Virus record (IMG/VR): IMGVR_UViG_3300043499_000073
Source of the DNA: a virus
Strand: one strand, 5' to 3'
Length of the DNA stretch: 48,440 bases
In this document: piece after piece, positions 5,466 to 36,611 of the stretch
How positions within the stretch are numbered: position 1 is the stretch's first letter
How the letters are laid out: each line of letters starts with the position of its first letter
Translations under genes and position numbers: made by a program
The notes under the pieces: model-generated
What the model was told of the DNA's origin: nothing
Database searches by the model: none
Seen by the model: the letters and a program-made list of their open reading frames with translations, nothing else

Positions 5466-5669
5466 CTAGAGCCTCATTGGTGTCACCACACCCAACAGGC
5501 CGGCGATGATGTAGACGATGATCAACACCACGATGACGGTGATCAGCACTGACACCACAGTTCTAAACTGCGGCGGCATTGGCACCATGGGCAACAGGGC
5601 TTGCACCGCCCACAGGATGACGCCGAGCACCACCAGCAGCAGGACGATCGAGATCAGCGTACCGATCAT
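5466..5669 (-). CDS. Small membrane protein with two hydrophobic helices (holin-like), 67 aa
   Basis: Almost entirely hydrophobic: MIGTLISIVLLLVVLGVILWAV and VVSVLITVIVVLIIVYIIAGLLGVV are separated by PMVPMPPQFR. It is followed without a gap by the lipoprotein ORF. Confidence 0.6.
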   Translation of the reverse strand: MIGTLISIVLLLVVLGVILWAVQALLPMVPMPPQFRTVVSVLITVIVVLIIVYIIAGLLGVVTPMRL

Positions 5670-5678
5670 GCTAGCCCC

Positions 5679-6251
5679 CTAGCGTCGGCGCGGAATCACC
5701 TTCTGGCCGACGAATTGCGGCTCGATCATATACTTTGTTTCGTCAATGGTAATGGGGCCACCGGCACTAATCGGCGTGCCGTCCGGCACCGGCGGTGGGG
5801 CTTCACCCTCACCCTGTTCAAAGCCAATCTGATTATAGGTTGATTTGACATCATAGGCGCGGTTGAGCGCATCGGCGGCACCCATCCGCTCGACGAACAC
5901 ATTGAGCGGGCCTTGCAGTTCTGGGACAGCCGCACCGGCGGCAAAGTTGGCGACCAGGTCGGTGTCGGAGGTGAGGCTGAACGTATAAATCGGGTACATC
6001 GACGCGACCAGGCCGTTGATGTAGGTCCACTGCACGAAGTGCTTATCGACGTTTGGCGTGGCTTGCACCGTCACCGTGGCGCCGATCGGATAGACGCCGC
6101 CGCCGCTGGTCATGCCAGCGTCAGGCGGCGAGGCGATGGTTGAAAGGGTTCTGGTGGTCGCTTGCGGGTCGACAACAACGACAACCGGCGGCGGCGTTTC
6201 CGTCGCCACCGGGTGCGGCTCAAAGTCAGGATTTTTAGGCCAGTCGGTCAC
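5679..6251 (-). CDS. Hypothetical 190-aa protein with an InlB B-repeat-like beta domain
   Basis: GTG start in a GTGA overlap with the upstream stop. The segment GGGVYPIGATVTVQATPNVDKHFVQWTYINGLVASMYPIYTFSLTSDTDLVANF resembles the G-x-Y-x-G-x-V-T-L-x-A-x-P...F-x-x-W...A-x-F repeat fold. Confidence 0.5.
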   Translation of the reverse strand: MTDWPKNPDFEPHPVATETPPPVVVVVDPQATTRTLSTIASPPDAGMTSGGGVYPIGATVTVQATPNVDKHFVQWTYINGLVASMYPIYTFSLTSDTDLVANFAAGAAVPELQGPLNVFVERMGAADALNRAYDVKSTYNQIGFEQGEGEAPPPVPDGTPISAGGPITIDETKYMIEPQFVGQKVIPRRR

Positions 6252-6617: not shown

Positions 6618-6830
6618 TCATTTTGCTTTTTCGCTAATGGGCTGGCAGGACTTAGCTAATTCGGCGATTAAGCTGTCGCGCCGCTCCGACGCAGATGAAA
6701 TATGGTAGAGCGTAAAAAACACCACGCCAAGGCAGACGATGTTGATGATGACGAGCGGCAACGCCAGCGGTCCCGCGGCCGCCAATCCCTTAGCAACCTC
6801 GCCCGCCACCTTGCCGGTGTACTCAATCAC
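6618..6830 (-). CDS. Single-pass membrane protein, 70 aa (holin or spanin-like candidate)
   Basis: GTG start in a GTGA overlap. One hydrophobic helix, LALPLVIINIVCLGVVFFTLY, is followed by a charged amphipathic tail SERRDSLIAELAKS. Confidence 0.55.
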   Translation of the reverse strand: MIEYTGKVAGEVAKGLAAAGPLALPLVIINIVCLGVVFFTLYHISSASERRDSLIAELAKSCQPISEKAK

Positions 6831-13677: not shown

Positions 13678-13718
13678 TCATGGCTCCCTCCTCAAGTCAG
13701 AGCCTGGTAAAAGTCAGT

Positions 13719-14111
13719 CTAACGTTTGCGACTGCGCGCCGCGCTCTCGGTGAAAGTAAAATCCAGCGTGTTGCTCTTCATGCTGCCGGTGCGAACGCCG
13801 ACCGGACAGGTGGCGGCGACCGCGAATATGCTCGGTTTGACGCCGGTGGTGATTTCGGTGGAACTCCTAAACTTGGTCGGCTCGTCGTGGCCGTTGAAGA
13901 CGATCTTGGTCACTTCGGTGAAATTCTCGCCGCTGACGACCAGCTCCAGGTCACCCTCGCCGCAAACCGCGGTGTCCGGCTCGAGCAGCTCAATGGTCGG
14001 CGGCTTCGCCTCGCTGAAAACGATATTGTCGGCGGCGCCGCCGGTGATGTCGACCTTGCCGGGACCGGACACGGTCAGAACCTGGTGCTCGCCGATGTGA
14101 TGGATCGTCAT
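13719..14111 (-). CDS. IPT/TIG (Ig-like) domain protein, 130 aa
   Basis: PTIELLEPDTAVCGEGDLELVVSGENFTEVTKIVFNGHDEPTKFRSSTEITTGVKP follows the P-x-I-x-x-I-x-P...G-x-x-F...V-x-F pattern of IPT/TIG domains. Confidence 0.6.
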   Translation of the reverse strand: MTIHHIGEHQVLTVSGPGKVDITGGAADNIVFSEAKPPTIELLEPDTAVCGEGDLELVVSGENFTEVTKIVFNGHDEPTKFRSSTEITTGVKPSIFAVAATCPVGVRTGSMKSNTLDFTFTESAARSRKR

Positions 14112-14123
14112 TGGGTATCCCTT

Positions 14124-14342
14124 TCAGAATGTGCCGCCGTCGAGCTTATCCCATATCCCGTTAGTGCGAACATACGCTTCACCGTCGAGCGGCGCCTCGG
14201 CTATTCCGCCGGCACTGCTGGCGGCGAACTGCGAAGCGATGCGCTTGTTGGCGGTCGGCGCCGCGGTAGTCTGAATGGCATTGCCGATCGCCGCCGGGTC
14301 GACGTTGGGTACCCAAAGCGCAACTCGCAGATTTTGGCTCAT
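14124..14342 (-). CDS. Hypothetical 72-aa fibre-associated protein
   Basis: ATGA-coupled to the upstream fibre. The C-terminal EAPLDGEAYVRTNGIWDKL resembles a motif recurrent in phage fibre proteins. Confidence 0.5.
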   Translation of the reverse strand: MSQNLRVALWVPNVDPAAIGNAIQTTAAPTANKRIASQFAASSAGGIAEAPLDGEAYVRTNGIWDKLDGGTF

Positions 14343-15751
14343 GGCGGTAGCACCACAGGAATATGCGGCCGGAACCAGACTGCCCAGAACCTGGAATCGG
14401 CCGGCGGCGCCACGGTCATCGCCAGGGTCGCGTCAATGCCGGTGAAATCAACGCCGGGCTCCTGCACAACACCATCCAGACTGACGATCAGCTGCGCGCT
14501 GTTGCCGATCGTGGTCGCGACCGCCGGCGGGCCGACGGTCGGATCGATGTAGCTCAGAGTGAAGATCTTGGTGGTGCCATCTGGTGTGAGCGGCTGCACT
14601 TTGAAGGCGTCGACCTTGGCGGAATTGATTTGGTCGGGCGGGATCATCAAATCCCACTGCACCACGGCGCCGGCGCCAGGCGCCTCGACCATGGTCATGC
14701 TATCGGCCGTCGGGTTGGTGGTGTAGTCGACGGTCGGCACCAGCCGCACGCCGTTCAAGTAAACGTCATGCCCCTCATTGGTAAAAAGCGGCGCGCGACC
14801 GCTGCTATCCATGCCGGAGAAGGTGACCTGGCCGGCGGTCGCGACGTAGACGTAACGCGCACGGAAACCTGGCGCGACGGTGATGCCGGGCTCCTGCCAG
14901 GAGGTGCCGTTCCAGATCATGATCGAGTTTTTTGCGGTGTCGTAGTAGAAACTGCCGACCGCTAACGGATCCGGCACGGTTTCGCCGGTGTTGGGGTTGG
15001 TTTCGCCAGGAACCGGCGGCACCGACCACGGCCCGAGGTAGTAAAAACCGATATTGCCGACCAATTGCTGGCAATAAATGGCCCACCACTTGGCCGACCA
15101 CAAACCACCGACGCCACCCATGCCGGAAACCGGCTGGTAGAACAGTCCTTGCGGAAATGCCGAGGCATTTATGAAATCCAGCGCGTGGCTGTTATCGACA
15201 ACAGGTCCGGCTAGATACTCTGCCCATTGAAGCGCCTCATCTTTGGCGGCAATGGCGTTGTCGGACTGCGCATGTGAGTAATTTGCCGAATTTTCCGAGG
15301 CAATCGCCGCGGATTCGGCCCGATCGGCGGAATTTTCCGCGTCAGAGGCGGAATCCAGCGCGTTGACGTTGCCGTGACTGATCGCGCTGAGCATTTGCGC
15401 CGCGCTGACGGCCGCCGCTTCAGCATCGGTGGCGCGCAAATCGGTCTCGCGACCGCTTTTGATGACAATCTGGATGGCGTCGGCGGCTTTTTCCGCTGCA
15501 GCGGCAATGCGGCGCTCGGTTTCGTCGATTTCGGCGCGATCGAGCTTCCATTCCGGCGTCAGTTGCTCCTGGCCGACGCTGTTATTGACCAGTTTGCCGT
15601 CGTCGCGGCGAATATCCGCAAGTGCTTGCTGGGTGGACTGGATTGCTTCGACTAGATTGTGGATCTGCGCGTCGAGCAGGTCGGCCTGGATCTGGCCGCG
15701 CGGGCGGTCGGAGAATAAAATCTTCTGCTGCGGCCGCACGATCGCTGGCAT
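14339..15751 (-). CDS. Tail fibre-like protein, 470 aa; first gene of the late super-operon
   Basis: The N-terminus (LFSDRPRGQIQADLLDAQIHNLVEAIQSTQQALADIRRDDGKLVNNSVGQEQL) is typical of fibre N-terminal helices. A long Ala/Ser/Asp coiled region follows, then a beta-rich C-terminal half. Confidence 0.65.
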   Translation of the reverse strand: MPAIVRPQQKILFSDRPRGQIQADLLDAQIHNLVEAIQSTQQALADIRRDDGKLVNNSVGQEQLTPEWKLDRAEIDETERRIAAAAEKAADAIQIVIKSGRETDLRATDAEAAAVSAAQMLSAISHGNVNALDSASDAENSADRAESAAIASENSANYSHAQSDNAIAAKDEALQWAEYLAGPVVDNSHALDFINASAFPQGLFYQPVSGMGGVGGLWSAKWWAIYCQQLVGNIGFYYLGPWSVPPVPGETNPNTGETVPDPLAVGSFYYDTAKNSIMIWNGTSWQEPGITVAPGFRARYVYVATAGQVTFSGMDSSGRAPLFTNEGHDVYLNGVRLVPTVDYTTNPTADSMTMVEAPGAGAVVQWDLMIPPDQINSAKVDAFKVQPLTPDGTTKIFTLSYIDPTVGPPAVATTIGNSAQLIVSLDGVVQEPGVDFTGIDATLAMTVAPPADSRFWAVWFRPHIPVVLPP

Positions 15752-24136: not shown

Positions 24137-24203
24137 CACAATACCTGGCCGGTTTTGGTATTTGCGCCGGTCACTAGAACTGAACCCGAAAGGACACGCG
24201 AAA

Positions 24204-24983
24204 ATGAATGAGATTGCAAAACGTAACCTTGGTTCGACAGCACTGTCGCTGCCGGACGACCTCGCCGACCGGCTGCTAGCTGGCATTGAGGACAGCCAGG
24301 CCACCACCCTGGTAGCCGGCGGCGGCAAGGATCTGATCAAGCTCTCCAAGAACGACGGCACCTGGAATATCGGCCAGGCCGACGAGCCGATGCAGGTCGG
24401 CTCCAAGTGGTGGATCAATGTCGTATCGATCTGCCACGGCTTCATCTGCTGGTCCAATTACCAAGGCAGCCGCAAGAATGAGCGGCTCGGCGAGGTGATG
24501 GTGCCGATGTACGAGCCCAAGCCGCAGAAGCCCGGCCCGATCGAGGGCTTCCCGTTCCAGGAGCAGCGCAGCTTTGAAGCGGTGTGCTTGAACGGCGAGG
24601 ATGAGGGTGCCGAGGTCCAGTTCAAGAACGGATCCGTTGGCACCATGAAGGGCTTTAAAAAGCTCGAGGATGCGGTCAAGGCCCAGCTCAGGACCGACCG
24701 TAAATTCCCCTGTCCGGTGATCCAATTCAAGTCGGAGAAATACAAGCACTCCGACTATGGCTGGATCTGGAACCCGGTGTTCGAGGTGGTCGACTGGGCC
24801 GACATGCAGGGCAACCTGAAGTCGGAAGGCGGGGCCGAGGCTCCGGCCGAGCCCGATGCGCCGAAGCCGGCGCCCGCGGCGGCCGCGGCCAAGCCCCGCA
24901 CCAAGCCGGCGCTGGTTGAGGATGCCCCTACTGCCGAGGCTGCGCCTCGGCCGGCGCAGCGGCGCCGTCCGCCAGCGGCTTAA
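24204..24983 (+). CDS. Hypothetical 259-aa protein (position suggests an ssDNA-binding or annealing partner)
   Basis: The ATG at 24204 follows AAAGGACACGCGAAA. It lies between the exonuclease and the polymerase. It has a Pro/Ala-rich basic C-terminal tail and no motif I can name. Confidence 0.6.
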   Translation: MNEIAKRNLGSTALSLPDDLADRLLAGIEDSQATTLVAGGGKDLIKLSKNDGTWNIGQADEPMQVGSKWWINVVSICHGFICWSNYQGSRKNERLGEVMVPMYEPKPQKPGPIEGFPFQEQRSFEAVCLNGEDEGAEVQFKNGSVGTMKGFKKLEDAVKAQLRTDRKFPCPVIQFKSEKYKHSDYGWIWNPVFEVVDWADMQGNLKSEGGAEAPAEPDAPKPAPAAAAAKPRTKPALVEDAPTAEAAPRPAQRRRPPAA

Positions 24984-27226: not shown

Positions 27227-27651
27227 TGGTCGCCTCAACCAAAGTCCGGCCGCTGCCACCGGGGGTACGCACGCGGCTCGATAAGATGCTGTTGCTGCTT
27301 GGTTCCGACAATGACGGCGAGCGGGCGGCGGCGTCCGGCATGATCACCAACCTGCTGCGCGAGCACGGCCTGGACTGGCATGACATCGTCGGCTCGATCG
27401 GCCAGCCTGCGGCGGCGGCGGCGCCAAAGCCGCCGCCACGCAACCCAGTGCCGATGCCTGTCGGTCATGAAATAACTGCGGATGAACTCAAGCGGTTGGT
27501 GCATTTGATTTTACGTAGTCCTCTCAATAAGCGGGCGCGGGAGTTCCTGGCCGGCATGATGGACCGTGCCAACATCTACGACCTGGTTTTTTTATCCGAC
27601 AAGCAATGGATTTGGCTGCGTGACTTAGCGCGGCGAGCGGGGGCGATATGA
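27226..27651 (+). CDS. Hypothetical 141-aa protein, DUF2786-like N-terminus
   Basis: TGATG overlap with the polymerase stop, with GGGAGGG upstream. LDKMLLLLGSDNDGERAAASGMITNLLREHGLDW resembles the DUF2786 helix pattern. Confidence 0.55.
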   Translation: MVASTKVRPLPPGVRTRLDKMLLLLGSDNDGERAAASGMITNLLREHGLDWHDIVGSIGQPAAAAAPKPPPRNPVPMPVGHEITADELKRLVHLILRSPLNKRAREFLAGMMDRANIYDLVFLSDKQWIWLRDLARRAGAI

Positions 27652-28379
27652 AGCATGTCATAGCACTATCTGGCGGCAAGGATTCCACCGCTATGGCGCT
27701 GCGGCTGAAGGAGCTGCACCCGCACACCGACTACACCTACGTCTGCACGCCGACCGGCGACGAGCTGCCGGAGATGTTCGAGCACTGGCGATCGCTCGGC
27801 GATCGCCTCGGCAAGAAGATTCTGCCGGTTATGCACAGCACTGGGCTTAAAGGTGTGATCCGCAAAGAGCAGATGCTGCCGAATTTCCGCGCCAGGTTCT
27901 GTACGCGGATCCTAAAGATCGAGCCGTACCGGCGCTGGCTGCAAGCTAACACGCCGTGCGTATCCTACGTCGGGCTCCGTGCCGACGAAGCGGGCCGGGC
28001 CGGCGGCGCCTACGCCGACATTGCCGGCGTCGAGATGCGCTTTCCTCTGCGCGAGTGGGGCTGGACCGAGCGGCATGTGTGGACGTACCTGGCTGATAAC
28101 CAGGTACAGATCCCGCCGCGTACCGACTGTGCGCGTTGTTACCACCAGCGGATTGGCGAGTGGTGGCAGCTGTGGAAGGAATTTCCCGAGCTGTGGGCCG
28201 ATGCCGAGGCCGATGAAGAGGAACTCAAGGCCACCTACCGCACGCCCGGCCGCGATACCTGGCCGACCGCATTGAAGGATCTACGCGCCGTATTCGAAGG
28301 CGGCCGGTTGCCACGCACGGTGAAGGACACTGCTGATGGCCTACGTAACGTCGGCGCCTGCCGGGTGTGTACGCTATGA
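27648..28379 (+). CDS. PP-loop ATP pyrophosphatase, PAPS-reductase family, 243 aa
   Basis: The N-terminal HVIALSGGKDSTAMAL is the SGGKDS PP-loop. Two C-terminal Cys pairs are present, CARCYH and CRVCTL. Confidence 0.8.
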   Translation: MKHVIALSGGKDSTAMALRLKELHPHTDYTYVCTPTGDELPEMFEHWRSLGDRLGKKILPVMHSTGLKGVIRKEQMLPNFRARFCTRILKIEPYRRWLQANTPCVSYVGLRADEAGRAGGAYADIAGVEMRFPLREWGWTERHVWTYLADNQVQIPPRTDCARCYHQRIGEWWQLWKEFPELWADAEADEEELKATYRTPGRDTWPTALKDLRAVFEGGRLPRTVKDTADGLRNVGACRVCTL

Positions 28380-30319: not shown

Positions 30320-30514
30320 TTAATCCCGTTCCAGTGCGCGCTGCGCAATCCCCATACTTTCATCAGCACTGACGTCATGCAAATTTGCAATTTCGCGCAG
30401 GGCTTCGCGCAGTTTCTCGTTCTTTTCCGCCAACCGCATAAGCTCGCGCAGGCCAATATTGAGCTGCCGTTCGATTTCAGTCAGCGCCGCGTACATCTCC
30501 TTCTCATGGGACAT
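30320..30514 (-). CDS. Hypothetical 64-aa helical protein
   Basis: Track ORF with coiled-coil-like ALTEIERQLNIGLRELMRLAEKNEKLREALREI. It overlaps the methyltransferase stop by 11 nt. Confidence 0.55.
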   Translation of the reverse strand: MSHEKEMYAALTEIERQLNIGLRELMRLAEKNEKLREALREIANLHDVSADESMGIAQRALERD

Positions 30515-31070
30515 CGCGGTGCATCCACTTCAGTTCTGGACGGCCGGTCCATTTGTGGTCGAACACCAACCAGCAATAGTCCGACTTGCCGCCGCCCACC
30601 TTGCCGCCCGAGGTGATGACATGGCCGGGCGGCATCGACGGCCGCGGGGTCAGCAGCCACACGCTTTGTAGTGGTTTGTTATCTAGCCAGCGGGCGGCAT
30701 TGAGCCGGGCGGTTGGCATGATCAGCGCCACCTTGTTGCGGGCGCGATCCAGCGCGTGCTTGGTAAACTCCTGGAACCTGTCGAACGGCGGGTTGCTGAC
30801 GATATTGTTGGGCGTGGTGATGTGGTTTTGAAAAAAGTCCTGCACATCGCCGCGGCCGCGACGATCGATCATGTCGGCGCCGTGTGCCAGGTAGCCGGCC
30901 TTGATCGCGGAATCGATAATGCGGCCGAAGCCGCAGGCGGGATCGTAGATGTCACCGACAAAGTGCTCTTCTTCGAACAGCCGCTCGCTGACCCAGAACG
31001 GCTCGACGTAGTGCTCGTCGACGCGGGGATAGGCTTTGGCGCCGGCGGTGTGGGTCCACGGCTGGCTCAT
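30504..31070 (-). CDS. Compact N6-adenine DNA methyltransferase (motif I before motif IV), 188 aa
   Basis: Motif I is IYDPACGFGRI and motif IV is VSNPPF. The ATG at 31070 is in an ATGA overlap with the upstream stop. Confidence 0.7.
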   Translation of the reverse strand: MSQPWTHTAGAKAYPRVDEHYVEPFWVSERLFEEEHFVGDIYDPACGFGRIIDSAIKAGYLAHGADMIDRRGRGDVQDFFQNHITTPNNIVSNPPFDRFQEFTKHALDRARNKVALIMPTARLNAARWLDNKPLQSVWLLTPRPSMPPGHVITSGGKVGGGKSDYCWLVFDHKWTGRPELKWMHRDVP

Positions 31071-31279
31071 CGCACGTCCTCGTTCCACTTCCACTTACCC
31101 TTGACCCAGTGGCCGTTGACCGGATCCTCACACTCGACGGCGCGGACTTCGCGTGCCGAGGTCCAACGTTGTTCCAGGTCACGGGCGTAAGCCATTGCTT
31201 CGGCTTCGGTTTCGCAGCGCACCGCGTTGTCGTACCACTTCGGGTCGTTGTGGACGCGCACCTCCGGTTTCCAGGCCAT
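31067..31279 (-). CDS. Hypothetical 70-aa Trp-rich protein
   Basis: Track ORF, coupled at both ends. Confidence 0.55.
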   Translation of the reverse strand: MAWKPEVRVHNDPKWYDNAVRCETEAEAMAYARDLEQRWTSAREVRAVECEDPVNGHWVKGKWKWNEDVR

Positions 31280-32261: not shown

Positions 32262-32274
32262 ATGGAATCAGTCC

Positions 32275-32329
32275 TATCTCAACATTTTTGAGGGTGCAAG
32301 CTTGTATCTCAAAATAGTTGAATTATAGT
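32275..32329. promoter_or_regulatory. Divergent control region: two operator-like sites TATCTCAA-N5-TTGAG/A spaced 30 bp apart, plus overlapping back-to-back -10 elements
   Basis: O1 has CTCAA at 32278-32282 and TTGAG at 32288-32292. O2 has CTCAA at 32308-32312 and TTGAA at 32318-32322. Plus strand: TTGTAT (32302-32307), 16-nt spacer, TATAGT (32324-32329). Minus strand: TATAAT, the reverse complement of 32322-32327. Confidence 0.5.
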
Positions 32330-32337
32330 CGGGTACA

Positions 32338-32532
32338 ATGGCCGACCCGGAAACCCAGCTGCGCGAGCTGATGATGGAGGATGCGAAGGTCTATCGCATC
32401 CGCAATCAGATCGCGGAGAAGACCGATCCGCAGGCCAATAAAAATAAAGCGTACAGGTCGAAGGCGAAGGCTAAGAAGGCTGTTAATGTTGAACCTGTCG
32501 ACGAACACCCAACAGAGGAACCACCCCAATGA
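32338..32532 (+). CDS. Hypothetical 64-aa charged protein (possibly leaderless)
   Basis: Track ORF. Its ATG lies 8 nt after the candidate -10, and there is no clear Shine-Dalgarno. Confidence 0.5.
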   Translation: MADPETQLRELMMEDAKVYRIRNQIAEKTDPQANKNKAYRSKAKAKKAVNVEPVDEHPTEEPPQ

Positions 32533-33314
32533 ATAAATTGCTTGGCACCGCGTTCGCGGTGTCTCTCGCTACATTTGCACTGGCGCTGCCGGCGCAGGCT
32601 GCCACCCGTATCCTCGGCGGCCAGACTTGGACGATCGGCGGCACTGACCTGACACTCGGCGGCGTCCCGGCCGGCAATCAACCGCAGAACGCGCCCTGCG
32701 TCATCTGCGGCGCGAACCAACCAAACCAAACCAACGTCGACCAGAATTTTGGTTATACGGACTATGGCAACCAGGGGAATTTAACCTCTGAGACTTACTT
32801 TTCGTCCGGTATTCTCAGGGACACGGTGCTTGGTGCCGATACCATCTCGGCGGTCAACTACAGCGGCACACAGTTGATCAACCTGATCACTGCGTTGGGT
32901 GGCCAGCAGACGTTCAGCATCGGCATCGATCTGAACCAGGCTAGTGGGCAGGGGCCGCAGACGCTGGAGAGCTTCTTCTTCCTCGACCTGACCAGCAAGA
33001 CGGTCCTGGCGTCGTTCCTGCCGGACATTAATGACGGCATTGCGCTCAATAGCATCAACAATGGCACGGGCTTTCCCGACTACCTATTAAACGGCCTGAC
33101 CACTGCCGGGTTGGATCCCAACCATCAGTATGCGTTCTTTGCCCGCATGACCAACATCAATGACGGCCCTGACAGCTTCTTCATTGTGCCGGGTACTCAG
33201 GTGGCGGCGGTGCCGCTGCCGGCGGTCGGCGCCGGACTGCCCGCCCTGATCGCGGGGATGTTTGGCTTGGTTGGGCTGCATCGCCGTCGGAAGCAGCGGT
33301 TGTTGTCGGCTTGA
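32529..33314 (+). CDS. Secreted protein with Sec signal peptide and C-terminal PEP-CTERM (VPLPA-type) sorting domain, 261 aa
   Basis: N-terminus MNKLLGTAFAVSLATFALALPAQA-AT. C-terminus AAVPLPAVGAGLPALIAGMFGLVGLHRRRKQR (motif, hydrophobic helix, basic cluster). ATGA-coupled to the upstream ORF. Confidence 0.75.
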   Translation: MNKLLGTAFAVSLATFALALPAQAATRILGGQTWTIGGTDLTLGGVPAGNQPQNAPCVICGANQPNQTNVDQNFGYTDYGNQGNLTSETYFSSGILRDTVLGADTISAVNYSGTQLINLITALGGQQTFSIGIDLNQASGQGPQTLESFFFLDLTSKTVLASFLPDINDGIALNSINNGTGFPDYLLNGLTTAGLDPNHQYAFFARMTNINDGPDSFFIVPGTQVAAVPLPAVGAGLPALIAGMFGLVGLHRRRKQRLLSA

Positions 33315-33554: not shown

Positions 33555-36500
33555 TTACCAACCGCCAGTACTGCCCATCGGCATCGAGAATCCGCCACCA
33601 CCCATATCGAAGCCACCGCCGCCACCCCAGTCGAGGCCGGCGCCGATGTTGCCGCCACCCCAACCCCAGCCACCGAGAACCTGCGGTGAGATCGGTGACA
33701 ACCCGCCGACCATGCCGCCGGACGCGGCTGTCTGATTGAGCAACGGACTCGAGTAGGTGCTGTTCTCAATGGGCGGCAGCACACCCGCCAAGGCTATGCT
33801 GCCGCCCTGGCTGCCGGGCGCGCCCGGTGCCACCGCGCCGGTCGGGATCGAACTTAATCCCGGCGGCGCAAGAGACAGCCCGCCGGCGGTACCACCGGCG
33901 GGCGTGGCGGGCTGCGCCGGAAGCACCGGCTGGGCATCAGCCGGTGGTGGGCTCGGATCCGGCGCAACCCGGCTTCCTTCATCGTTGTAGACATCGGTCA
34001 GGGCTTGGGCGATCTCCGGCGTCATCACCAGTTGCGGAGTTTGCGACGGTTCTGCGTAGCGCGCGTTCTTGCCGGTTGGCACACCCGGATCGGCGTCGAT
34101 GTTGGTGTGTTGTTTAATGTCGTAGAAACCGGCGTCGTTAGCGAGGGCGTCTGTCCGGCCAAGCTTAGAACGATTTTGTCCGCCTTTTCTCTTGTATGGA
34201 TCGCCCATATACGGATCGGATTCGGATTCAACATACATTCTGCGGTCATGAATGTTTGTCGACTCTGGCATCCGCGATGTGTCGATCGGTTTGAACGATC
34301 CGAGATGCTCGATAAATCCTGTGTTCTCTCGGTTGATGTATTCGGCCATTGCAGGATCGACATCAGGCAATGCGACAGCGCCACCTGAAGACGAGAAGTT
34401 CTGCGCCGGCAGTTCTGGCGCGTCGACCGCGGCGGTTGCGCCAGGTTTCTGGTCAGCAGCCGGTGTAACCTCCTCAGTGACGGCCGCTCCGGCGGCCGCC
34501 GCGGTCGGCTCTGGTGCCAGCCGCTTGCTGGCGCTGAAGTCGGTGGCACCCGAGGTGCCGAGGTCGAGGTCGCTGCGCTTGCCGACTGCCGCCGGCTTCG
34601 GCGCGCCCTCCTTCACCGCGGCGTCAAACTGCTGCTGGGTGATGCCCATCTTCGGCAGGTAGGGTTGCACGCCGGCGGCGATCTGGCTGCCGATGAACGG
34701 CGTGTTCATTGCCTCACGCAAGGTCTTGTTGCCGATGAAGTCCGGCACTTGACTGACCTTGCTCGGATCCCCCCGCTTGACCAGCTCGATCACCTTGGTG
34801 TCGAGCAGCGCGTGTGCCGGGTTGACCGCGGGAGCGGCTGGCGGCGCCGGCTTGGCGACCGGCGGCGGCGCAGGGGGCGCGGCTGCCGGAGGTTTGACCG
34901 GCGCCGCTGCTGCCGCAGCCGGGGTAGTAGGGGTAGGCACTACGGCCGCGGGAGGTGGAGCTTGGGCTGCTGGTGTCGCTGCCGGTTCTTCCGGCAGCAA
35001 TGTTTCCGGTTCGGTCGCCGCGATTGCGGCAGCACCCGGCGGCGCACTTGGCGTGGGTGCCGCCGCCGGAGCCGCAGCCGGCGCAGGCTTCGCTTCAGCT
35101 TGCGGGGGCTGGGCGGGAGCCTGTGCCGGAGCTGTTTTTGGTGTCGCTGCTGGATCCTGTTTGCCGCCCCAGTCCTGGGCCGCGGTCGTTCCGGCGTTTG
35201 GATTCTTGTAATAGTTCGGATTGTCGAACGCCTGCGCTTCCTGGCCGCGGCGAATGGTCAGGCCGTGCAACGGCTTCTTGGCGCCGGATGCGTCGGTGAC
35301 CTTGTCGTACTGGACGAAGATCTCTTTAGCCTGCTTCCAGTCGCCGGCCTTCACCGCGGCAGCCAGGCCGGTGTTGTTCAAGGCGGCGCCGCCGGTGTTG
35401 AAGCCGAGCGAGGCGAGCGAGTTGCGGATCGCCGGCGGGGTGTTGGGGTTGAGCGCATCGATCGTTGCCAGGTGCCGGCTCAGTTCGGCGTTCATCTCAG
35501 CCCTGGCGGTCGGCTCGTCGATGCTGGTGCGGCCCTTGGCGGCGGTGCCGTAGCCGATGTTGGTGGTGCCATAGTCGGCGAACGACTTCGGCGTGAAGTT
35601 CTCCTTCTTGGCCACCCACTCGGTCAGCTCCGGCGGCACGCCAGCGGCGTGCGGGCCTGTCGCGGATGTAGCGGATGTAGCGGATGCCGGGTTGGAGAAC
35701 GATTGCCCTTTATAGCCAGGATTGATCTGGACGTGCGGCGCGTCACCCTTGACCGGGAAGTGGACGCCAAACTTGTCCTGGTTGCCGGCGTTCAACCACT
35801 GCCGGAACGGGCTGTCGGGCAGGTCGCCGGCGCTACCCTTCTGGTGCTGCGAGTGGCCGGCCTTGGCGGCGATGCCGCCGGTGCCGGCCTCGTACTTGTC
35901 GCGGTAGATCTGCTGCACGTCGGCGCCGCGGGAGAACTCGCCGTACTGCGCCCGCTTGCCGGGGTTCTCCTTCTCGAACGCCTCGCCAGCGGCACGCAGC
36001 CGGGCGGCCAGTTCGGGATCAATCCCCTGGTAGCTGCCGGCCGCGGTCAGCGGCGCGTCGACGATCTTGCCGTCCTTCAACACACTGTGGTGACCGCCAC
36101 GCTCCTGTAAGAACTTGAGATCGGCTTGGTAGGTCGGGCCTTCGGCCGATCGCTCGACCGGCGCCCTGAGCCTGGCGCGGTTGGCGCCCGGCCCAGGCGG
36201 CCGCTCCGGCATGGCCGGCGGTGTCGGCGGCTTCACCTGCTGCTGTGCCTGCAGCTTCTGCTGCAGGGCCTTGTCCTTGGCGGCGCCGAAGCCGCCCGAG
36301 ATCGTTTCACCGATGCTATCGTCACTCTGCATCGGCCGCTGCAGCGACGAGGTGACCTGGCCGACCAGCGGCTGCACCTGCAGCGGCTTGGTTTCGTCGA
36401 CGTGGATGTCTTTCGCGCTCGGCCCCTTGAGTATGCGCTCGAGGAATTGGGTCATCTGGCTGGGCTGTGTGCCGGGTGGCACCACACCCAGGTTGACGCC

Positions 36501-36611
36501 GAGCGCGTGCAGCGCACGCGAAGTATCATCGCCGAGCAGCGGCTGCTTGCCGGCGATCATCGTCTGCTTGCTCTTCTCGCGCTCGAGCGCCTGTTCGTCC
36601 ATGTAGGCCAT
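33555..36611 (-). CDS. Internal virion/ejection protein (T7 gp16 position), 1018 aa, with M15 (VanY-like) peptidase and GH24 T4-lysozyme-like domains
   Basis: S254-Q-H-Q-K-G-S-A-G-D263 fits S-x-H-x-x-G-x-A-x-D, and DAPH293 is also present. E337-x8-D346-x5-N-IGYG corresponds to the T4 lysozyme E-x8-D-x5-T-IGIG. There is a ~130-aa Pro/Ala linker and a Gly/Trp-rich C-terminus. Confidence 0.8.
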   Translation of the reverse strand: MAYMDEQALEREKSKQTMIAGKQPLLGDDTSRALHALGVNLGVVPPGTQPSQMTQFLERILKGPSAKDIHVDETKPLQVQPLVGQVTSSLQRPMQSDDSIGETISGGFGAAKDKALQQKLQAQQQVKPPTPPAMPERPPGPGANRARLRAPVERSAEGPTYQADLKFLQERGGHHSVLKDGKIVDAPLTAAGSYQGIDPELAARLRAAGEAFEKENPGKRAQYGEFSRGADVQQIYRDKYEAGTGGIAAKAGHSQHQKGSAGDLPDSPFRQWLNAGNQDKFGVHFPVKGDAPHVQINPGYKGQSFSNPASATSATSATGPHAAGVPPELTEWVAKKENFTPKSFADYGTTNIGYGTAAKGRTSIDEPTARAEMNAELSRHLATIDALNPNTPPAIRNSLASLGFNTGGAALNNTGLAAAVKAGDWKQAKEIFVQYDKVTDASGAKKPLHGLTIRRGQEAQAFDNPNYYKNPNAGTTAAQDWGGKQDPAATPKTAPAQAPAQPPQAEAKPAPAAAPAAAPTPSAPPGAAAIAATEPETLLPEEPAATPAAQAPPPAAVVPTPTTPAAAAAAPVKPPAAAPPAPPPVAKPAPPAAPAVNPAHALLDTKVIELVKRGDPSKVSQVPDFIGNKTLREAMNTPFIGSQIAAGVQPYLPKMGITQQQFDAAVKEGAPKPAAVGKRSDLDLGTSGATDFSASKRLAPEPTAAAAGAAVTEEVTPAADQKPGATAAVDAPELPAQNFSSSGGAVALPDVDPAMAEYINRENTGFIEHLGSFKPIDTSRMPESTNIHDRRMYVESESDPYMGDPYKRKGGQNRSKLGRTDALANDAGFYDIKQHTNIDADPGVPTGKNARYAEPSQTPQLVMTPEIAQALTDVYNDEGSRVAPDPSPPPADAQPVLPAQPATPAGGTAGGLSLAPPGLSSIPTGAVAPGAPGSQGGSIALAGVLPPIENSTYSSPLLNQTAASGGMVGGLSPISPQVLGGWGWGGGNIGAGLDWGGGGGFDMGGGGFSMPMGSTGGW

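Follow-up and report, generated by a model that had tools for sequence, protein, structure and literature searches.

The stretch of DNA analyzed here (IMG/VR record IMGVR_UViG_3300043499_000073; 48,440 nucleotides, hereafter the window) is a phage genome, encoding a large terminase subunit (TerL, 4e-98), a portal protein, a major head protein (8e-42), tail fibres, PolA, a helicase, a primase, and an exonuclease. At the junction of its early and structural modules lies an open reading frame (ORF) on the plus strand (32529..33314) whose 261-residue product corresponds exactly to that described in the original prediction, where it was taken for a phage-borne substrate of the exosortase pathway, namely a PEP-CTERM protein of the VPLPA type. 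The protein combines a predicted signal peptide, a beta-rich ectodomain of about 200 residues (residues 25 to ~225), and a three-part C-terminal tail (Table 1). The comparisons reported below retain this architecture, place the tail in a large class of C-terminal tails that curated models do not recognize, and indicate that the gene is one form of an exchangeable phage cassette.

Table 1. Features of the locus of the tail-bearing gene, with positions in the window
Feature	Position	Strand	Remarks
Helix-turn-helix (HTH) DNA-binding regulator, 76 aa	32031..32261	-	phrog_8008 (DNA binding protein, 1.2e-5), phrog_409 (transcriptional regulator, 7e-5), phrog_35 (repressor, 3e-3)
Divergent intergenic region, 76 bp	32262..32337	.	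Two operator-like repeats and a TATAGT box
Operator-like repeats, 17 nt, TATCTCAAnATnnTTGA	32275-32291, 32305-32321		Located by repeat search
orf64, hydrophilic ORF of 64 aa	32338..32532	+	ATGA-coupled to the tail-bearing gene
Signal peptide (predicted)	32529..32600	+	Residues 1-24, MNKLLG...ALPAQA, followed by AT; A22 and A24 at least 90% conserved
Exchangeable ectodomain-coding cassette	32560..33197	+	'DGPDSFF' family beta-rich domain; no homology to sister phage L121 here
Invariant CxxC (C57, C60)	32697-32708	+	Family alignment
Conserved last strand NDGPDSFF	33159-33182	+	Family alignment
Linker and three-part C-terminal anchor/sorting-type signal	33198..33314	+	Right homology arm of the cassette
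VPLPA (residues 228-232)	33210-33224	+	Preceded by linker IVPGTQVAA
Hydrophobic helix of 18 residues, VGAGLPALIAGMFGLVGL (233-250)	33225-33278	+	
Basic cluster HRRRKQR	33279-33299	+	Followed by LLSA and stop
orf51, ORF of 51 aa	33399..33554	+	Hydrophobic N-terminus, two Cys; last gene of the plus-strand unit

The N-terminus (MNKLLGTAFAVSLATFALALPAQA, followed by AT) shows the n-, h-, and c-regions typical of a Sec signal peptide and an AxA site, the two alanines of which are conserved among 73 aligned homologs to the degree given in Table 1, and residues 2-17 form a helix in the AlphaFold2 (AF2) model; these observations support the cleavable signal peptide of the original prediction. A hydropathy scan detected hydrophobic segments at the N- and C-termini only and no internal transmembrane (TM) segment, as in the architecture of PEP-CTERM proteins. 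The claim that the gene is less GC-rich than the genome stands only in part: its GC content (0.595) is marginally lower than that of the window (0.619), while the adjacent early region stands at 0.589, and its GC content at third codon positions (GC3, 0.756) falls among the values for other phage genes (0.71-0.82). A reading of the gene as a compositional island was rejected.

At the extreme C-terminus, a TM stretch of 18 residues is followed by a basic cluster that ends four residues from the stop codon, again in keeping with the PEP-CTERM layout. This is the only such tail in the window; a second candidate gene (13680-14552) proved to be a spurious ORF. The literal VPLPA pentapeptide and the three-part layout are what would be expected if the protein truly belonged to the catalogued VPLPA-CTERM (TIGR03370) or PEP-CTERM families and were processed by the classical exosortase of an alphaproteobacterial host. 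Moreover, 9 of the best 120 homologs end in classic VPLPA-GVWLFGSG tails, 15 of 110 orthologue tails match TIGR03370 at E<=0.01 (best 2.5e-9), and cellular contigs with a related tail class look Hyphomicrobiales-like. However, the window tail itself scored only 8.8 bits (as a 49-residue tail) or 9.9 bits (as a 36-residue tail) on the VPLPA-CTERM model, the cutoff of which is 25.35 bits and on which the consensus control reached 48.8 bits. Likewise, neither the full protein nor the isolated tail matched PEP_CTERM (TIGR02595) or PF07589 at E<=10, while consensus controls scored 37.8 and 40.2 bits, respectively. The original prediction had named these models as its own check; the tail fails both, and by that standard membership in either family is formally refuted. 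What survives of the proposed phage-borne PEP-CTERM substrate is the signal peptide and the three-part tail architecture, and membership in a catalogued family is judged improbable.

The tail finds its place in a class defined in this analysis as VPxPxxGAGLPxL-TM-RRR. A non-circular control profile was built from 54 metagenomic carriers only, with the window tail excluded. On this profile the window tail scored 34.6 bits, as compared to 8.8 bits for the best of 200 shuffled sequences and at most 2.4 bits for canonical PEP, VPLPA, and PEPxxWA tails (classic VPLPA tails, -1.7 to 1.9 bits). The window tail also has the V, P, P, G, A, G, P, L, and R columns that are invariant in the class. Because of these scores, the window tail is assigned by profile comparison to the VPxPxxGAGLPxL class and not to VPLPA-CTERM, and the two are treated as distinct classes. 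The VPLPA string that had been read as a family mark is, by the same evidence, coincidental.

A search of 1.84 billion representative sequences with the tail profile yielded 6,278 representative clusters at E<=1e-3 and 4,028 at E<=1e-10, all matched at the extreme C-terminus. Carriers of the class have a signal peptide, a diverse ectodomain of 120-400 residues, and a near-invariant tail (28 protein letters not shown) that runs into (K/Q)KIA, and some occur as tandem genes; one (P0245) has the VPLPAVGTGLP motif of the window. Those members that were sampled all derive from JGI or ENA metagenomes and none from NCBI or UniRef. JGI wrongly labels some carriers (among P0241-P0373 and L239-L241) 'LPXTG-motif cell wall-anchored protein', since they reach no model other than the generic LPXTG_anchor (18.2 bits). 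The cellular nature of the class is based on a handful of genomic contexts. In these, carriers on bacterial chromosomes lie near genes for histidine kinases, the type VI secretion protein Hcp, LysR, an ABC substrate-binding protein, and thiamine pyrophosphate enzymes, while several others are in mobile-element or decayed-prophage regions. In a single example (L241:10001-20201), a cellular carrier adjoins a polysaccharide locus encoding a chain-length determinant (Wzz/AAA_31), a NusG-like protein, an epimerase, an ABC2_membrane/Wzt transporter, and glycosyltransferases. PEP-CTERM systems have classically been associated with such surroundings. The best nucleotide matches of two class-carrier contigs (~72-75%) are replicons of Bradyrhizobium, Shinella, Rhizobium, and Sinorhizobium, a rough pointer to cellular carriers that are Hyphomicrobiales-like. 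A tblastn search of plasmids with the consensus tail returned no match, a weak negative given low-complexity filtering and the length of the query.

Homologs of the window protein itself link this class to established sorting signals. At E<=1e-3, 507 homologs were recovered, all metagenomic and many on contigs of 40-47 kb, and in all of them the shared ectodomain stands between a signal peptide and a three-part tail. Among the best 120, the tail is VPGPxxGAGxPGL in 74, VP[LIV]PAVGxG (the flavour of the window) in 18, VPE(P/L)xTWAMM in another 18, and of some other type in 1, in addition to the nine classic VPLPA tails mentioned above. When 110 orthologue tails were scanned at E<=0.01, 18 matched PEPxxWA-CTERM (best 1e-11) and 12 matched PEP_CTERM, besides the 15 matching VPLPA-CTERM; the majority flavour and that of the window were recognized by no curated model. 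Phages other than that of the window thus carry tails that pass PEP-CTERM-type models, in partial support of the original prediction. Residues A227, V228, and P229 are at least 90% conserved or invariant over all tail flavours. About 30% of homologs have true PEPxxWA, VPLPA, or PEP-CTERM tails, and since these occupy the same position as the tail of the window protein, the latter is probably a functionally equivalent sorting signal. Composite tails of the form VPGPxVGA-VPEPxTWAMM, as seen in L049, L050, and P0099, seem to be left over from the replacement of one tail by another. One further homolog, on an 84-kb contig (P0009), ends in ...AVPGPAVGAGLPALVAGLLACSASIVCVVVV without a basic cluster and may have a frameshifted or decaying anchor.

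Comparison of closely related phages indicates how such proteins diversify. The closest sister phage, L121 (IMGVR_UViG_3300044492_000085; a contig of 48,016 nucleotides), is 100% identical to the window in the HTH regulator, 98% in orf173, 95% in both orf64 and the helicase, 94% in PolA, and 90% in orf51. In the slot of the tail-bearing gene, it nevertheless encodes an unrelated ectodomain of 190 residues (the '...ITDFEHFRIDVAP' family), as do L109 and L117. Nucleotide homology between the window and L121 (91%) ends at 32559, ten codons into the shared signal peptide (MNKLLG), and resumes (89%) at 33198, exactly at QVAA-VPLPAVG; between these points, 528 nucleotides of unrelated ectodomain sequence in L121 replace the cassette of the window. 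Because homology breaks and resumes in this manner around an unrelated ectodomain, the locus is read as an exchangeable-ectodomain cassette set between a conserved leader and signal peptide and a conserved anchor. In this arrangement, the first ~10 codons of the signal peptide correspond to a left homology arm and the tail coding sequence to a right arm. More distant comparisons give a similar picture. The ectodomains of L020 and L023 share ~50% identity with that of the window and their tails ~80%, with flanking genes at 71-97%. At the nucleotide level, L020 is 83-98% identical in the flanks, 35-72% in the ectodomain, and 80% or more in the tail, and the alignment with L023 breaks at 32532 and resumes at 33134. 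Conversely, L001 has an unrelated backbone and an ectodomain that is 80-93% identical to that of the window, joined to a tail of a different flavour. Tail flavour follows the phage backbone rather than the ectodomain, and ectodomain and tail are seen, in these alignments, to assort INDEPENDENTLY.

Use of the tail extends well beyond two ectodomains. A DNA-pattern scan of viral contigs returned 21 matches to the window-type tail and at least 120 to the VPGP type, and 91 full-length viral carriers fell into nine ectodomain clusters with 33, 30, 7, 7, 6, 5, 1, 1, and 1 members. The first of these is the family of the window protein, and the second is the ~190-residue family of L121, L109, and L117, which ends in ...GGSITDFEH(F/Y)RIDVAP and had no match in Pfam or NCBIfam. 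By this clustering, at least nine unrelated phage ectodomain families use the VPxPxxGAGLPxL tail; neither such sharing nor the exchangeable cassette figures in the original prediction. None of the other tail-bearing phage ectodomains contained a Pfam domain. One phage family with the tail did match the NCBIfam 'FxDxF family PEP-CTERM protein' over residues 7-154 (E 6.9e-12; 45.9 bits, against a cutoff of 50) and is interpreted as a second, independent PEP-CTERM-associated ectodomain that wears this tail. Six contigs (L130, L142, L165, L185, L197, and L199) encode two tail-bearing genes in tandem, 560-780 nucleotides apart and with different ectodomains; these pairs often include a ~150-residue 'GTGGGTxGYGGN' family that resembles the NCBIfam FxDxF PEP-CTERM family.

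The ectodomain of the window protein offers fewer clues. An AF2 model computed with the family alignment (pLDDT 83.6, pTM 0.76) has a beta-rich core (residues 26-221) and a C-terminal helix (236-260). Conserved features of the homologs include the invariant C57 and C60, which lie inside PC(I/V)ICGANQPNQT, an NGTG motif, and the terminal NDGPDSFF strand. The two cysteines are the only ones in the protein and probably form a disulfide in the periplasm. The full protein had no match in NCBIfam or Pfam at E<=10 and none in PHROG, and no homology to known exclusion proteins was detected for it in PHROG, Pfam, or NCBIfam. A Foldseek search of the AF2 model against PDB and BFVD returned nothing at E<=1e-3, and a resemblance to jelly-roll, lectin, or carbohydrate-binding-module folds was too vague to be relied upon.

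The main rival to processing of the tail is a plain, uncleaved, bitopic inner-membrane protein. Its C-terminal TM segment would act as a stop-transfer anchor oriented by the positive-inside rule, and its periplasmic ectodomain might block DNA entry in the manner of inner-membrane exclusion proteins. Several observations fit such an anchor and weigh against a dedicated processing pathway. The window tail fails every curated exosortase-substrate model. In the published definition, PEP-CTERM tails have a near-invariant Pro-Glu-Pro at the interface of periplasm and membrane and a hydrophobic stretch of ~14 residues (Haft et al. 2006, PMC1569441); the window tail reads P-L-P, with Leu in place of Glu, and its hydrophobic stretch has 18 residues. 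No exosortase-like ORF was found in the window and no exosortase in 2.0 Mb of related viral loci, where the only candidates were four Ala/Val/Pro-rich alternate-frame artefacts that were rejected. Six cellular or mobile-element contexts of tail carriers also contained no exosortase or other candidate enzyme. The exact sub-flavour VP[LIV]PAVGxGxPxL occurs on no protein of 185,579 species-representative genomes, the 17 matches in that scan being chance or out of frame. Finally, residues 236-260 are modeled as one confident helix, as a simple anchor would be. However, such an anchor would not need an invariant V-P-x-P...G-A-G-L-P at the membrane face, and this motif is kept over thousands of unrelated proteins. 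Nor would it account for the interchange of the tail with true PEPxxWA, VPLPA, and PEP-CTERM tails among orthologues, or for its presence on an ectodomain of the FxDxF PEP-CTERM family. An uncleaved anchor is accordingly considered the less likely reading. The interchange with true PEP-CTERM-type tails, the FxDxF ectodomain, and the pattern of many proteins sharing one tail lend indirect support to a putative sorting signal that would be processed by a dedicated enzyme.

The distribution of the family points to an accessory function. Relatives are encoded on 198 IMG/VR contigs; none was found in the 185,579 species-representative bacterial and archaeal genomes or in a deposited phage (INPHARED), and the region and protein were likewise without a match among deposited phages. 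The homologs held by NCBI are metagenome assemblies. Within the collections searched, the family was thus found only in phages. The 155 immediate neighbours of homologs fell into 96 clusters, and homologs occupy several positions, including between the major capsid protein and adaptor genes of an SU10-like podovirus, in a RecT/early region, and directly after TerL (eight loci). In Microcystis phage Mae-Yong1326-1, which by TerL is the closest cultured relative of the window phage (50%), the equivalent junction is empty. By these comparisons, the gene qualifies as a mobile ('moron-like') phage accessory gene.

Further small proteins, secreted or with two TM segments, are often encoded directly after the homologs. 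Two such downstream partners recur: a signal-peptide protein with ~60 mature residues (...GTRTxYDPxGK...) and a two-TM protein (...IRRID...WYY...GGLMF...WFF). They lie next to the homolog in L006, L007, L010, L014, L024, L032, L042, L045, L052, L057, L064, L065, L068, and L069, and both are unrelated to orf51 of the window. In addition, the SU10-like phage mentioned above, with its homolog between the major capsid protein and adaptor genes, has genes for Acb2/Tad1-hairpin and Tad2-like anti-defence proteins a short way upstream of its terminase gene (L098:3156-3631).

No integrase or lysogeny module was found among ~30 larger ORFs of the window that were scanned, and the phage encodes its own replication genes; for these reasons it is probably virulent, and a lysogenic-conversion reading of the gene was rejected. 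A role in lysis merits consideration, given that the T1 gp11-type unimolecular spanins have a similar topology, with an N-terminal signal, a periplasmic domain, and a C-terminal TM segment. The window protein, which pairs an N-terminal signal with a beta-rich domain and a C-terminal TM segment, could in principle bridge the periplasm in the same manner, and one homolog (L102) lies near a phage lysozyme gene. However, unimolecular spanins are defined by a lipobox, and no lipobox Cys follows the signal peptide (ALPAQA is followed by AT). The likely lysis genes of the window are 26 kb off. They encode small holin-like proteins, each with one or two TM segments (5466-5669 and 6618-6830, both on the minus strand), on either side of a 190-residue ORF (5679-6251, minus strand) without a PHROG match; the region is a candidate holin/lysis cassette distant from the tail-bearing gene. 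Furthermore, the gene occurs at many unrelated positions, is absent from cultured relatives, and is exchanged for unrelated ectodomains, as an essential lysis gene would not be. A spanin-type function is therefore very improbable.

Other genes of the window were noted in passing. Immediately downstream of the plus-strand unit is the gene for a 1018-residue virion protein (33555-36611, minus strand). The protein has a lysozyme-like domain at its centre (phrog_7, 1.4e-15) and long low-complexity regions rich in Ala and Pro, and its C-terminus is rich in Gly and Trp (GGWGWGGG...). Its counterpart in the related Microcystis phage is the giant 'peptidoglycan transglycosylase', and it is probably an internal protein that is ejected. 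A phosphoadenosine phosphosulfate (PAPS)-reductase-like protein (27648-28379, plus strand; phrog_424, 7.7e-39), a nucleotidyltransferase (24162-24983, plus strand; 2.7e-13), and a DNA methyltransferase (30504-31094, minus strand; 1.6e-37) suggest a DNA-modification or anti-restriction module.

The immediate surroundings of the tail-bearing gene are well conserved. Together with orf64 and orf51 it forms a three-gene plus-strand unit that diverges from the HTH regulator and converges with the end of the structural module. The PHROG matches of the regulator are weak (Table 1), and the protein is 89-100% identical in L020, L023, and L121. In the intergenic region, the TATAGT box is directly upstream of the ATG of orf64, and the repeats and box are conserved in L020, and largely in L023, up to the start codon of the gene. 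The region may function as a promoter. A promoter scan around the gene found one minus-strand site, at chance level, and a terminator scan was likewise not above chance. The divergent placement of the unit and the small HTH regulator on either side of operator-like repeats is in keeping with the 'early switch' of the original prediction, expression from which is plausible by position. The ATGA overlap with orf64 is real and is kept in L020, L023, and L121; orf64 itself occupies the corresponding place in L003, L020, L023, L109, and L121, at 52-95% identity. The downstream peptide that had been considered possible, orf51, is probably a real gene, given that it is 88-90% conserved in sister phages (L020, L109, L117, and L121), and its product is a probable small membrane or secreted peptide. 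Neither orf64 nor orf51 matched a family in NCBIfam, Pfam, or PHROG.

Taken together, these data are compatible with a mobile accessory gene whose exported ectodomain is carried on a PEP-CTERM-like tail, processed by an exosortase-like enzyme of the host, and active in lytic infection, a reading that is held with roughly even confidence. Under this model, the protein would be exported by the Sec pathway and its signal peptide cleaved. The tail would then hold it in the inner membrane, with the ectodomain in the periplasm and the basic cluster in the cytoplasm. A host exosortase-like enzyme would recognize VPxP at the membrane face and cleave, and the ectodomain would be passed to the outer envelope or polysaccharide layer; recognition at the membrane face followed by outward transfer has been proposed for PEP-CTERM proteins (PMC1569441). 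Since no lysogeny module was found and the phage has its own replication genes, the protein would most likely act during lytic infection. Its role may resemble that of T5 Llp or T4 Imm/Sp in blocking or masking a receptor or entry step, which would exclude competing phages or protect progeny, and conflict with some variable partner, in the form of an arms race, may lie behind the swapping of ectodomains. The function would probably be superinfection exclusion or receptor masking, as suggested by the predicted envelope targeting, the accessory status, and the hypervariability of the ectodomain between conserved flanks. Besides the points above that favour an uncleaved anchor, two negative results count against this model: no fold relative of the ectodomain points to a specific partner, and the window has no tRNA genes and, by TerL and PolA, only distant cultured relatives that could point to a host.

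Several known systems provide points of comparison. Like substrates of the PEP-CTERM/exosortase system (EpsH, XrtA; PMC1569441; TIGR03370 and NF035944 variants), the window protein has a signal peptide, an ectodomain with little homology to known families, and a conserved proline motif at the membrane face that is followed by a TM helix and a basic cluster, and one tail is shared by many unrelated proteins. Organisms with that system encode an EpsH-family exosortase, an outer membrane, and exopolysaccharide genes, and the original prediction likewise expects an exosortase in the host. Its orthologues carry true PEPxxWA, VPLPA, or PEP-CTERM tails, and one cellular carrier of its tail adjoins a polysaccharide export locus. 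Unlike those substrates, its motif is V-P-x-P-x-x-G-A-G-L-P-x-L, with a longer hydrophobic stretch that contains internal Gly and Pro, and its gene is on a probably virulent phage and not in a cellular exopolysaccharide regulon, with sampled carriers known from metagenomes only. A further parallel is found in accessory envelope proteins such as T5 Llp, phi80/HK022 Cor, T4 Imm/Sp, and P22 SieA (PMC11436027). These are also small genes outside the core modules with envelope-exported products (predicted in the present case), are carried in part by virulent phages (T5 and T4), and would be expected to diversify rapidly as genes in conflict. However, the window protein has no sequence or fold similarity to them and ends in a PEP-CTERM-like tail in place of a lipobox or polytopic membrane domain.

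In the 'choice-of-anchor' families of NCBIfam, homologous ectodomains occur with alternative C-terminal sorting signals. The present case is similar in that one ectodomain family has at least four tails and one tail is found on at least nine ectodomain families; it differs in that the shuffling takes place within phage genomes, in one lineage at a fixed locus, and with signal-peptide and tail sequences as recombination arms. In agreement with the original prediction, the searchable literature describes no phage family of exosortase-type substrates; VPLPA-CTERM and PEPxxWA-CTERM do not occur in it as terms, nor do the motif strings. The sole comparable item is a passing mention of a PEP-CTERM domain on HOG10 of the Dehalococcoides IME1 virus-like elements (bioRxiv 10.64898/2026.09.15.751708), where a mobile virus-like element likewise encodes a signal-peptide protein with a PEP-CTERM-type domain. 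IME1 is an integrative element for which no cassette behaviour is described, and the likeness noted is one of domain type. Neither C-terminal sorting signals in three parts nor accessory envelope proteins of phages are without precedent; what is new is the tail class and the hot-swappable phage cassette.

If the tail is a sorting signal, a large class that existing models miss, with more than 6,000 representative clusters of which the sampled ones are all metagenomic, would join the prokaryotic C-terminal sorting signals as a new family with thousands of substrates, and with a hidden Markov model of the tail, phylogenetic profiling could be used to look for the processing enzyme. Substrates of such a pathway would then be carried by phages, an apparently virulent one among them, and would comprise at least nine ectodomain families on ~200 viral contigs. 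With a cassette of this kind, phages may be able to change the surface of infected cells in a modular fashion. Near-identical phages that differ in the ectodomain only would constitute a natural experiment on the surface functions that phages need, and the cassette would represent a ready-made design for surface display. A broader and more tentative proposal, to which less than even confidence is attached, is that soil phages exploit an unrecognized but widespread exosortase-like pathway of uncultured, probably Hyphomicrobiales-like bacteria by means of a plug-and-play display cassette, swapping ectodomains between the conserved leader and anchor so that rapidly exchangeable receptor masks or exclusion factors would reach the surface of the infected cell. 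As tail flavour follows the phage backbone and not the ectodomain, it could also serve as a host-range marker for uncultured soil phages.

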